In this document: piece by piece, positions 29,101-31,374 of the stretch
Numbering within the stretch: the first letter of the stretch is position 1
Layout of the letters: every line of letters starts with the position of its first letter
From: Candidatus Nomurabacteria bacterium RIFCSPHIGHO2_12_FULL_42_19
GTDB taxonomy: Bacteria; Patescibacteriota; Minisyncoccia; Phycocordibacterales; UBA9973
Assembly: GCA_001786955.1 (NCBI GenBank)
Contig: MFUM01000004.1
Span: 4,457-68,456, forward strand
Direction: 5' to 3'
DNA: 64,000 nucleotides
Notes under the pieces: model-generated
What the model saw: only the letters and a program-made list of their open reading frames with translations
Database searches by the model: none
What the model was told of the DNA's origin: nothing
Position numbers and translations under genes: made by a program

Positions 29101-31374
29101 TTATTTCGCAATTTGAGTAGCTTCTTCGAATTTTACCGAGAGAAGTTTGGAAGCTTCGTTGGAGCCGATGGTGACGCCGTAAAGAATTCCGGCTCTGGAC
29201 ATCGTTTCGCGGTTGTGGGTAACGACGATAAGCTGGGATTGCTTGGAGAGCTTCTCCAGCATATCCCCGTATTTTCGGGAGTTTGCTTCATCCAGCGCCG
29301 CATCCGTTTCGTCCAGCACCAAAAAAGGCGGCGGATTGACTTGCGACATAGCGAAAAGAAGGGCAATGGAAGTAAGCGACCTTTCTCCCCCGGAGAAAGC
29401 GTGAAGTTCCTTGACTTTCTTGCGCGGCAAAGAGACATTGATTTCTATTCCTTTTTCAATAACGATGTTCTCATCATCTTCTGATTCCCCCATTTCATCG
29501 TCATCTTCATTGATTTCATCAACTTTTTTCTTCTTAGTTTCAATAATAGAAATAGATCCGTGTCCGCCGCCAAACATTAATGAAAAGAATTCTTGAAACT
29601 CTACGTTGATTTTTTTGACACCTTCCTTGAATTCCGTATCTATTTTTTCCTTCAAATCAGCAATAAGTATAACCAGAGATTCAATGCTTTTGGATAAATC
29701 TTCCATTTCTTTCGTTAAAAATTGATCCCGCCCGGAAACTTCTTTATATTCCTTTATCAATTCCGCTCCGTTGCCCAGGCCCGTATCTTCTAATTTTATT
29801 TTTATGCGCTCAATTTTTTTCTTTTGGTCTTCTTGGTTATGCAATTCCCCGTTGTTTTCAATTTTATAGTCCTTATAAGAAAAAACTTCCCGTCCAATCA
29901 GGATTTCCCCTTCTTTTATCTCATTTTCAAAAGATTCGGCCCTATTTTTCAAATTCCCTTCTTTGATAGCCACAAGTTCCAGAGCGGAAGACAATTCTTG
30001 TTGTCTGACTCTCCAGGCAAATTTCTCCCGTTCAAGATCGCGTAAGGCCTCCATTTCCTTGTTTATTTCTTGTTTCAGTATCTCTATTGATTTGGCAATT
30101 TCTTTTTCTTTGCTTTCAATCCCTTTCATTTCTTCCAAGATTGCCTGCTGGGTTTTTTTTAGTTTTTCAATTTCTAAATTGTGGCTGGATTCATCCTTGT
30201 CATTTTGAGAGAATTTTTTCAAAATATTCTTAATACTCTCCAAAACGGGCCTAATCTCCTCAATACTTTCTTTTAAAAAAGCCAAATCTATAGAATTATT
30301 TATCTCACTGATTATGGCTTTGATTTCTTCCTGTGAAATTTCTATAAATAGGGATTTCTGTTCTTTCCTGCGTTCTTCCATTTCAACCATTCCCTCTATC
30401 CGCCCAAGCTTGCGTTCTATTTCACTTTTTACTCCGCGAAGGGAGTTGAGGCCTTCCTCAATTTTTCTCAATTCTTCTATTTTACCCCCACCCATCCTCC
30501 CCCTTATTAAGGGGGAGGTGTCAGAATGACGGAGGGGGTCGTTGTTTTCAACAATAGAAATTTTACCAGTTACATTTTTAAGTTCATTTGAAAGCTTGTT
30601 CCTTTCAGATGATAAATCGGCTTTCTCTTTCTCCAAAAAGATGCTTTCTTTCTTCAGATATTCCCCGTAAAGAGCCGTCAGCTCTGTTTGCATTTCTTTT
30701 GTTTTTTCAAATTTTTCCACCTGTTTCTTGAGAAAGTTAAGATGTGGGGCATTTTCCCGCCGCATTAAGGAAACCTCTTTCATGTTTTCATTCGTCCGTT
30801 CAAGTTTTCTCTCGCTTTCTTTTATCTTATATTGATAAATTTTAAGTCCCAAGGCATCTTCTACCATTTCTTTTTTTTCTCTTGCATTGGCGCTCAAAAT
30901 CCTGTCTGTCTCGCCCTGAGAAATAATGTGATGCCCGGAAGAACCTATGTTGACCGAGGCCAGCAAATTGTGAATATCCTTCAGTCTGACTTCTGTGCCA
31001 TTTAAAATATATTTATTCAACCCATCGGAAAAAACCTCGCGGGAAATTGAAATAACATCATAATTCAAATTAATATTCTCTCCCCCGTCATTGGAAAGCT
31101 TGAAAATTTTGTCGGAATTATTGAAATAGATGGTGACGGACGCCCGTGAGGCTTTTGGCAGATTTTTAGAACCTTTAAAAATGAGATCCGAACCGCCTTT
31201 TCCGCGCATGGATTTCATGGATTGTTCGCCCAAAACAAAGCGGATGGATTCCACCACATTGGATTTTCCGGATCCGTTCGGGCCGACAATGGAAACAATG
31301 GGATTTTCAAACTCTAAAACAGTTTTTTGGGCAAAAGACTTAAAACCATTTAGCTGGAGTGTTTTGAGCCGCAT
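29101..31374 (-). CDS. smc: SMC-like chromosome segregation ATPase (compact, 757 aa)
   Basis: N-terminal Walker A (GPNGSGKSN), long coiled coils, a C-terminal signature (LSGGERSLTSIALLFA) and Walker B (LVLDETDAALD) are present. Confidence 0.75.
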   Translation of the reverse strand: MRLKTLQLNGFKSFAQKTVLEFENPIVSIVGPNGSGKSNVVESIRFVLGEQSMKSMRGKGGSDLIFKGSKNLPKASRASVTIYFNNSDKIFKLSNDGGENINLNYDVISISREVFSDGLNKYILNGTEVRLKDIHNLLASVNIGSSGHHIISQGETDRILSANAREKKEMVEDALGLKIYQYKIKESERKLERTNENMKEVSLMRRENAPHLNFLKKQVEKFEKTKEMQTELTALYGEYLKKESIFLEKEKADLSSERNKLSNELKNVTGKISIVENNDPLRHSDTSPLIRGRMGGGKIEELRKIEEGLNSLRGVKSEIERKLGRIEGMVEMEERRKEQKSLFIEISQEEIKAIISEINNSIDLAFLKESIEEIRPVLESIKNILKKFSQNDKDESSHNLEIEKLKKTQQAILEEMKGIESKEKEIAKSIEILKQEINKEMEALRDLEREKFAWRVRQQELSSALELVAIKEGNLKNRAESFENEIKEGEILIGREVFSYKDYKIENNGELHNQEDQKKKIERIKIKLEDTGLGNGAELIKEYKEVSGRDQFLTKEMEDLSKSIESLVILIADLKEKIDTEFKEGVKKINVEFQEFFSLMFGGGHGSISIIETKKKKVDEINEDDDEMGESEDDENIVIEKGIEINVSLPRKKVKELHAFSGGERSLTSIALLFAMSQVNPPPFLVLDETDAALDEANSRKYGDMLEKLSKQSQLIVVTHNRETMSRAGILYGVTIGSNEASKLLSVKFEEATQIAK
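30484..30542. repeat. GC-rich palindromic element, family A (ccccc..tcctcccccttattaagggggagg..ggagggggtc), in frame inside smc
   Basis: cccccttattaaggggg hairpin. The encoded peptide is SPLIRGRMGGGK. Confidence 0.6.

Follow-up and report, generated by a model that had tools for sequence, protein, structure and literature searches.

The window analysed here, a 64,000-nucleotide stretch of contig MFUM01000004.1 (assembly GCA_001786955.1) from Candidatus Nomurabacteria bacterium RIFCSPHIGHO2_12_FULL_42_19, a very small bacterium of groundwater, contains the gene of a compact, chromosome-organising SMC-like ATPase of 757 aa, and within that gene lies a GC-rich palindromic element of 57-58 nt. We conclude, with a probability of roughly 0.7, that this element is a non-autonomous selfish palindromic repeat that is tolerated in the SMC gene and translated as a flexible loop in its one open frame. 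Comparison with relatives identified it as an insertion in which about 21 nt of the ancestral loop codon block were replaced. It is one copy of a small GC-rich nested-palindrome repeat that has spread through transcribed DNA in this Nomurabacteria genome, essential genes included. The peptide that it adds to the SMC protein is most likely neutral ballast and not a functional module.

The element folds as a three-way junction

The host gene and the parts of the element are as follows.

29101..31374, minus strand: host gene, compact 757-aa SMC-like ATPase (open reading frame, ORF; Pfam SMC_N, AAA_23, AAA_21)
30483..30540, minus strand: three-way-junction repeat, SMC subtype, 57-58 nt, sense to the SMC mRNA and encoding DPLRHSDTSPLIRGRMGGG (covariance model R1, fold, absence of a counterpart in most orthologues)
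30534..30539, minus strand: 5′ arm of P1, sense ACCCCC (RNAfold structure and model alignment)
30484..30489, minus strand: 3′ arm of P1, sense GGGGGT, partner of 30534-30539 (RNAfold structure and model alignment)
30520..30530, minus strand: small hairpin P2, sense GTCA-TTC-TGAC (sequence, fold; all four P2 pairs covary across 30 copies)
30496..30518, minus strand: long hairpin P3, CCTCCCCC / 7-nt loop / GGGGGAGG (sequence, shuffles, fold)

The palindrome that the initial annotation had reported is present at 30490-30540 of the + strand. On this strand, positions 30484-30540 read ACCCCC-ACCCAT-CCTCCCCC-TTATTAA-GGGGGAGG-T-GTCA-GAA-TGAC-GGAGGGGGT-C, while the minus (coding) strand reads GACCCCCTCC-GTCA-TTC-TGAC-A-CCTCCCCC-TTAATAA-GGGGGAGG-ATGGGT-GGGGGT. 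The main hairpin, P3, is formed on the + strand by CCTCCCCC (30496-30503), the loop TTATTAA and GGGGGAGG (30511-30518), with a stem of 8-10 bp. The "second arm" described with it, GGAGGGGGT (30531-30539), proved to be real as well: it pairs with ACCCCC at 30484-30489 and makes the outer closing stem, P1. To these two features, which stood as described, our analysis added the 4-bp hairpin P2 and with it the overall topology, a three-way junction of P1, P2 and the 8-10 bp P3.

The sense strand of the SMC element (67 nt) has a minimum free energy of −35.9 kcal/mol (z = −4.26), and none of 200 shuffles was as stable. The 17-nt hairpin core also exceeded chance, with three or more matches in 0 of 100 shuffles. 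The covariance model R1, which comprises 62 positions and 23 pairs, scored the SMC copy at 58.4 bits (E about 1e-12) and the opposite strand at 24 bits.

Position of the insert in the predicted SMC structure

Read in the frame of the gene, the element gives ...ENN-DPLRHSDTSPLIRGRMGGG-KIEE..., the same peptide that was initially proposed, and its 19 residues occupy positions 279-297 of the protein. We modelled the protein with AlphaFold2 from a 52-sequence alignment; the head was poorly predicted (mean pLDDT 65) and the long helices were confident. Helices 178-277 and 296-340 have pLDDT values of 80-90, and residues 281-295 between them fall below 50, which agrees with the earlier placement of the insert in the coiled-coil arm of a compact SMC. 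In the model the long helices 178-340 and 397-601 form an antiparallel coiled coil that joins the halves of an ABC-type head, the arrangement of the SMC family; no canonical hinge domain was detected in this compact 757-aa form, whose head confidence is low. The returning arm has a matching break at residues 503-513, facing the insert. SMC arms are known to bend at such "elbow" or "joint" discontinuities of the coiled coil.

An orthologue lacking the insert (P0007) was predicted with helices at 178-276 and 282-328, separated by a 5-residue break at the matching site. Since this break is in the same place, the element is predicted to have stretched a pre-existing discontinuity of about 5 residues to one of about 18, and not to have interrupted a heptad helix. 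The comparison with and without the insert, suggested in the initial annotation, thus gave a lengthened break between flanking helices that remain intact.

The exact SMC protein is named by NCBI for Candidatus Nomurabacteria bacterium GW2011_GWA2_41_25, and the identical protein occurs on at least 23 contigs from independent NCBI, ENA and JGI assemblies, which shows that the segment is not an accident of assembly.

The insert is patchily distributed among SMC homologues

We compared the best 120 SMC homologues, which are 68-100% identical to the query. About 107 of them have a short loop at the insert site, ...IS-x-TED-x-N-S-x-x-G-N-K-KIEEL... ("SxxGNK"). The element is found in nine (P0001-P0005 from the query species, and P0013, P0051, P0052 and P0067), which read ...E(N/D)N-DPLRHSDTSPL(I/L/P)RGR(M/L)G(G/R)G-(KI/SSL)EEL..., and four further proteins have other small inserts at this position. 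At the DNA level, alignment of filled and empty sites showed that the 57-nt element takes the place of 21 nt, AATAACACCAAGGGTAATAAG in L005 and AATCTAGTTCAAAACAGCCAG in L129. The initial annotation had held that the same peptide in orthologous SMC proteins of unrelated lineages would speak against an insertion. The peptide is indeed found in such orthologues (P0013, P0051, P0052 and P0067; contigs L132, L135, L138, L146 and L148), yet its occurrence is patchy, at 9 of 120. Because of this distribution, and because the same nucleotide element lies in unrelated genes, it is not an ancestral SMC feature and its reading as an insertion stands.

A neighbour-joining tree, for which the insert region was masked, places the insert-bearing SMCs in five distinct lineages, and each of these has closer relatives that lack the insert: P0051 and the insert-less P0094 are 92% identical, and P0052 is 89% identical to P0084 and P0115. 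Between lineages the element is 95-98% identical, whereas the adjacent 60-nt windows are 54-83% and the gene averages 70-78% identical. The flanking 60-nt windows are no closer than the gene average, and there is no extended co-conversion tract around the insert. An upstream signature ISI[IV]E, considered as common to the insert-bearing SMCs, is not universal, as L132 and L146 have ISDTED instead.

The downstream junctions of the SMC element are of two types, ...GGGGGT|AAAATAGAAGAA and ...GGGGGT|TCTTCTTTAGAAGAA. In L006 (10893-10910), L135, L138 and L148 the native AAGAAAATAGAAGAA (KKIEE) has become TCTTCTTTAGAAGAA (SSLEE), and this junction creates a new 6-bp inverted repeat, TTCTTC-ttta-GAAGAA. 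It looks like the product of quasi-palindrome correction by template switching.

A different GC-rich palindrome sits in the same SMC loop in P0008 (L168, gene codons about 281-291) and in P0082. The presence of different inserts in other lineages makes this loop a hot spot for several palindrome types. Other small GC-rich inserts were also observed there in P0081 and P0088; examples of different inserts in the loop are GGCAACCCGCGCCAAGGCGGGGCAAGT, translated EGNPRQGGAS, and one translated NNPRHSGAR.

Assembly differences between populations are concentrated in the element

Five near-identical variants of the SMC protein differ by seven substitutions, all within the 19 residues of the insert and none in the other 738. 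This confinement argues against selection on the peptide. Across 8.3 kb of compared DNA, four of the seven differences in L127 and two of the three in L128 lie inside the 57-nt element. Most of the element differences between population assemblies are changes from A/T to G/C that extend homopolymer runs. The clustering may come either from relaxed constraint or hypervariability, from gene conversion, or from Illumina error at the hairpin.

The same subtype lies in unrelated genes and in non-coding DNA

Searching metagenome contigs for exact matches to the 20-nt core GTCATTCTGACACCTCCCCC gave 19 loci. In five of these (L132, L135, L138, L146 and L148) the host is an SMC gene and the element occupies the same site; the remaining hosts of the SMC-subtype element are listed below.

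L131 and L143: PilM
L136: ComEC
L139 and L141: PolA, 5′-3′ exonuclease domain
L137 and L144: ArgRS, at two sites
L145: MnmA, interdomain linker
L130, L140 and L142: LepA-like ORF, antisense
L133, and L134 and L147: non-coding DNA, three sites

No rRNA was found as host of the copies that lie outside ORFs. The occurrence of one sequence family, up to an identical 20-nt core, in unrelated genes and in non-coding DNA indicated that the nucleotide sequence is conserved and not the SMC function. At one site in the N-terminal domain of ArgRS (residues about 70-95), two organisms carry different members of the family, the SMC-subtype element HPLRHSDTSPLAKGEEGGG in L144 and PRLPLKGEGAESNPPSLEERVGVRF in L137.

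All sense genic copies share one frame, (D/N/H)PLRHSDTSP-xx-RG-x-GGG. Only one of the three sense frames is stop-free, the other two holding TGA (in P2) or TAA (in the loop), and that frame is used at all ten sense-oriented genic sites to give a peptide rich in Pro, Ser, Arg and Gly. The stems of P3 are conserved while its loop varies freely (TTAATAA, TTGATAA, TACAGTA, GAAGCTC and others) and even appears flipped, as TTAATAA in the window and TTATTAA in L006; such free flipping is behaviour typical of DNA hairpins.

When genic sites are pooled, about 10 are sense and 2 antisense. A strict sense-only orientation did not hold, as antisense in-frame copies occur in the LepA-like ORF and in a 691-aa ORF, and intergenic copies lie both ways. 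Across phyla the orientation relative to the upstream ORF is mildly biased, at about 16:7 by crude ORF calls. We regard the sense bias as a lead and not as a result.

Further copies in the window

The initial annotation had assigned the palindrome to a "Family A", and this membership was borne out: the model R1 found six copies in the window, five of them related to the SMC copy as listed here.

33075..33134, minus strand: best-preserved copy, non-coding, between the stop of the L32 gene and the start of NusB-Nudix, sense to both (R1 81.2 bits, E about 1e-18)
40790..40876, minus strand: composite copy with P1, P2 and two P3-type hairpins, a clean 84-nt, 28-aa in-frame insertion in PheS (filled versus empty site, L005)
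39229..39280, minus strand: degenerate copy that keeps P2 and P3 and has lost the 3′ arm of P1, an 11-aa in-frame insertion in PheT (filled versus empty site)
25769..25886, plus strand: two adjacent copies (25769-25821 and 25830-25886), a 20-aa in-frame insertion in RNase R (alignment with L004, L005 and L006)

Five of the six copies are therefore in-frame inserts (two in RNase R and one each in SMC, PheS and PheT), and the sixth lies in the non-coding 3′ region of L32, where it folds at −44.2 kcal/mol (z = −7.06). Relative to syntenic relatives, the net in-frame gains are 28 aa in PheS, 11 in PheT, 20 in RNase R and 12 in SMC. A 32-nt stretch is 100% identical, as reverse complement, between two essential genes (RNase R 25798-25829 and PheS 40782-40813). 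The copies carry compensatory variants of P2: GTCA/TGAC, GCCC/GGGC (GCCC-GAT-GGGC), GCC/GGC (GCC-TTT-GGC) and GTCC/GGGC (GTCC-TTC-GGGC).

L005, the closest relative, whose SMC is 82% identical, lacks all of these inserts and gave no R1 match in its 22 kb, and L129 and L168 have no R1 copies either. At the five sites for which filled and empty versions were aligned (SMC, PheS, PheT, RNase R and ThrRS) no target-site duplication was seen; either 12-21 nt of the target were replaced or the insert was flush. All six window copies are sense to the local transcription unit, those in RNase R on the + strand and the others on the − strand. Along the window the cumulative GC skew declines monotonically, as if all of it belonged to one replichore.

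Related repeats in other phyla

A scan for the P3 pattern CYYCYCCTTRATAAGGRGRRG, with each species represented by one genome, gave at least 120 loci, where about 35 chance matches were calculated for equal base frequencies. Among the matches listed are Cyanobacteria, including the isolates Calothrix PCC 7716, Calothrix NIES-267 and Scytonema UTEX 2349, as well as Dehalococcoidia, Ignavibacteria, Desulfuromonadales, Turneriella, Acidobacteriota, Planctomycetes, Gammaproteobacteria and Patescibacteria. In many of these matches the order is AACCTCACCCC, P2, A, CCCCTCTCC-loop-GGAGAGGGG and GGGGTGAGGTT. In 30 strong R1 matches (46-85 bits), 93.6% of the cells are paired and 12 of the 23 pairs have changed on both sides, a level of covariation approached by none of 500 shuffles and by no slid control. 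Cyanobacteria, Leptospiraceae and viral contigs have the full three-way-junction repeat with compensatory changes, and many more phyla have the shared hairpin motif. P1 and P3 differ little in primary sequence between Nomurabacteria, Cyanobacteria and Turneriella, and the L32 copy of the window is essentially the cyanobacterial consensus.

IMG/VR viral contigs contain full copies of the family and the broader hairpin pattern, with no match to the exact SMC subtype. A BLAST search of PLSDB plasmids with the consensus gave one unannotated match. Rfam 15 returned only three tRNAs for the window at the gathering threshold, and at an E-value threshold two copies gave only sub-threshold miRNA look-alikes (18-21 bits against cut-offs of 64-95). 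No description of the repeat was found in the literature searched, also by sequence string, and this literature held no link of Candidate Phyla Radiation (CPR)/Patescibacteria with miniature inverted-repeat transposable elements, or MITEs, with repetitive extragenic palindromic (REP) sequences or palindromic elements.

Some of these loci have features of their own. An uncultured cyanobacterium (L026, 2641-3016) has four family hairpins in a tandem array with an exact 101-nt period and two hairpins per unit, which is an amplified form of the repeat. On L089, from a metagenome-assembled genome (MAG), inverted repeats of ~100 nt with a CCCCTCC-TTGATAA-GGAGGGG hairpin (100-210 and 7560-7680) flank a tol-pal/ybgF/queE/rluB block; the ~100-nt repeat is also present in L079, L083, L100 and L115. 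We rejected L089 as an insertion sequence (IS) bounded by inverted copies, since a tol-pal operon lies between intergenic repeats. A contig labelled "MAG: Rickettsia typhi" (L071, 2840-2860) has a family hairpin with a GGGGCGGT tail; it could be mis-binned or could hint at a link to Rickettsia repeats.

Other repeats and genes in the window

A second family of GC-rich palindromes, ACCTGCC...GCGCAGGC...GGCAGGT, lies inside ORFs at 8603-8645, 35110-35131, 39977-40030 and 49555-49600. In ThrRS this family (CCTGCC...GGCAGG) makes a clean 18-nt, 6-aa (LPAQAG) insertion, CTGCCTGCGCAGGCAGGC, which forms a perfect 22-nt palindrome together with its native flanks; in PheT it adds 6 aa, PPAPKAPAGQAE versus ESKSTK. 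Two copies, 8605-8641 and 49557-49593, show 89% complementarity. A 731-aa ORF (44819..47014, minus strand) contains a GC-rich 64-nt direct repeat with a small hairpin, CCCGGTACCCCGGG, whose two units (45578-45641 and 46226-46289) are 91% identical and 648 nt apart. Hairpins of the form AAAACCCCGCC...GGCGGGGTTTT with A/T-run flanks at gene ends (598-626, 24313-24341 and also 16100-16121) resemble ordinary intrinsic terminators of the bidirectional type and differ from the repeat family.

A GC-rich patch in GyrB (36518-36573) was dismissed as an insertion because lengths are equal in relatives. The GyrB of L004 (852-4229; GCA_028718635.1) has 1125 aa and an intein (Pfam Intein_splicing), and that of the window has 699 aa without one. 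Between GyrB and ThrRS the window carries an HTH_17 gene and a Fic-domain gene (35514-36252, minus strand), a place taken in L004 and L005 by a gene for uracil-DNA glycosylase on the opposite strand; this locus is a lineage-specific swap of a toxin-antitoxin-like pair. The RNase R ORF (TTG start, 737 aa; 24954-25172 region) is 64-71 aa longer than the calls in three assemblies (666-673 aa), and the true start probably lies downstream.

Origin of the element and alternative explanations

If the element is a selfish repeat, its copies would arise at random or preferred sites by a trans-acting process, or one of replication-template switching, that uses the hairpins. They would survive only where frame and protein structure tolerate them, that is in loops, linkers and 3′ untranslated regions, and would afterwards decay by losing arms and by flipping or replacing loops.

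Several points weigh against this explanation. No transposase, target-site duplication or excision footprint was found, although no scan aimed at transposases was made, and mobility is therefore read from the distribution of the copies only. The same 21 nt were replaced at the same codon in five lineages without an extended co-conversion tract, which random insertion fails to explain, as does simple homologous transfer. The recurrence may come from independent insertions with a preference for the site, from short allele patches passed on laterally, or from selection at the nucleotide level. Moreover, conservation of the element above that of its flanks, covariation, and genic copies that are mostly sense would fit a selected function at the RNA or DNA level too, and a core architecture common to Cyanobacteria, Leptospiraceae and viral contigs is uncommon in a repeat that is purely selfish and decays fast. 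Finally, the translation of the insert is a predicted one, read from the frame of the ORF.

We also put forward, at a low probability, the wider possibility that these repeats form a so far undescribed class of mobile elements, ultra-small (about 60 nt), built as three-way junctions and present across phyla, which would spread without target duplication in a hairpin- or transcription-dependent manner, would "home" repeatedly to the same codon of essential genes and would be translated in a single open frame.

Selection for a cis-acting structure is the alternative that fares best, but we consider it unlikely. On this view the three-way junction would serve the cell as RNA or as single-stranded DNA, for example as an mRNA 3′ stabiliser or processing site, a translational pause site or a protein-binding site, with the peptide as a by-product. 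Such a role would suit the compensatory changes in all three helices across phyla, the near identity of P1 and P3 in Nomurabacteria, Cyanobacteria and Turneriella, and SMC copies that remain 95-98% identical between diverged flanks; it would also suit the mostly sense orientation of genic copies and the well-preserved sense copies that closely follow ribosomal protein genes on the 3′ side (the L32 gene of the window, the S16 gene of contig L004). However, close relatives without any copy retain the same genes, and copies decay, as seen in the lost arm of PheT and the diverged copy of L138. The P3 loop flips or is replaced freely, as in DNA hairpin dynamics, antisense copies exist in both genic and intergenic positions, and the mismatches have little strand asymmetry (15 T-G versus 11 C-A/A-C). 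There is no Rfam match, and inverted repeats in DNA yield the same covariation signal.

It is very improbable that the DPLRHSDTSPLIRGRMGGG loop is an adaptive, protein-level insertion, kept by selection as a hinge, elbow or binding motif. About 107 of the 120 orthologues do without it, and the nucleotides concerned encode this peptide also in PilM, ComEC, PolA, ArgRS and MnmA and exist as untranslated copies as well. The recurrence of the peptide at one SMC position in five lineages would favour a module of this kind, and so would its location at a coiled-coil discontinuity opposite the break at 503-513, where SMC arms are known to bend; against this, the insert is modelled with low confidence and takes up no regular structure, the amino-acid differences among the five population variants all fall within it (7 in 19 residues versus 0 in 738), and another lineage has a different palindrome in the same loop.

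Even less probable is an intervening sequence kept out of the mature protein by removal from the mRNA, by ribosomal bypassing or by excision from the protein. Ribosomal bypassing occurs in T4 gene 60 and in the mitochondrial "byp" elements, and a stable GC-rich hairpin in an AT-rich coding region is reminiscent of the bypassed, GC-cluster-derived elements of yeast mitochondria. Yet all genic copies examined are in frame and stop-free although two of the three sense frames hold stops, and such constant maintenance of frame is not expected of a segment that is skipped; in addition, an intein or a self-splicing intron would need far more than 57 nt, and no ribozyme or intron family matched. An assembly or sequencing artefact at the GC-rich hairpin has a negligible chance of being correct, since the clustering of differences resembling single-nucleotide polymorphisms in a context of known Illumina errors (4 of 7 in L127, 2 of 3 in L128) is set against an identical protein on at least 23 contigs of independent assemblies and an element that is always in frame in different species and genes.

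The CPR, a large group of uncultured bacteria, has genomes among the smallest and most streamlined known, and this one tolerates repeats in SMC, RNase R, PheS, PheT and ThrRS. Should the same hold more widely, part of the "lineage-specific insertions" of CPR proteins would be selfish DNA and not adaptation; such inserts would inflate divergence and confuse alignments, phylogenies and structure predictions of CPR proteins, and the family would offer a natural experiment on how proteins absorb random loops.

Comparison with known systems

Inteins, self-splicing introns and bypassed segments do not describe the element, which is 57 nt long, always in frame, stop-free and without an intron or ribozyme match. 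Very small GC-rich hairpin modules are known among the mobile GC clusters or double-hairpin elements of fungal mitochondria, and the small dispersed repeats (SDR) of cyanobacteria, reportedly treated by Elhai et al. in 2008, are said to be of the same kind. Going by their general descriptions, both share with our element an appearance at new sites without target duplication, sometimes in genes or in other repeats, and the 18-nt palindrome inserted in ThrRS falls in their size class; the mitochondrial clusters differ in belonging to another genetic system.

With MITEs the element shares inverted termini (the arms of P1), small size, many copies, presence or absence between relatives, and truncated, decaying copies. 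Its terminal inverted repeats are ACCCCC/GGGGGT here and AACCTCACCCC/GGGGTGAGGTT in the consensus. It differs from them in replacing target bases instead of duplicating a target site, and its size is at or below their lower limit. Among the genes called in the syntenic 22-kb loci we noticed no cognate IS with matching termini, though no transposase scan was made.

REP and REPIN elements are extragenic, have a GTAG or CGTC head and are mobilised by RAYT transposases (PMC3116915, PMC3733652). Our repeats resemble them as GC-rich hairpins of tens of nucleotides, dispersed in high copy and with compensatory changes in their stems, but start with AACCTCACCCC or GACCCCC, and five of the six window copies are intragenic, so that they do not classify as REP. 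Their near identity across phyla and in viral contigs, together with the recurrence at one SMC codon, would call for a conserved recognising factor or for efficient horizontal spread, and goes beyond current models of MITE or REP mobility.

The closest analogue is provided by the Rickettsia palindromic elements (RPE), which, as outlined in PMC10969869 after Ogata et al. (2000), measure about 100-150 bp and lie in frame in housekeeping genes. Taking the RPE from that outline, each of the two is a short, non-autonomous palindromic repeat in the small, AT-rich genome of a host-dependent bacterium, both occur in frame in unrelated housekeeping genes and also in non-coding DNA, and both give a conserved peptide, in one frame, at fold-compatible sites of the host protein. 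The RPE hallmarks given there were found here as well: a stable palindromic hairpin, in-frame insertion in unrelated genes with a conserved peptide, and non-coding copies. On the same terms, our element differs in its 57-62 nt, in a three-way junction with a C-run/G-run hairpin, and in its phylum, Patescibacteria; it also has near-identical relatives in Cyanobacteria, Leptospiraceae and viral contigs, and recurs at one SMC codon position in five lineages. Given its length of 57-62 nt and its occurrence in Candidatus Nomurabacteria, we regard it, from a comparison by description and not by sequence, as an analogue of the RPE and not as a member of that family.

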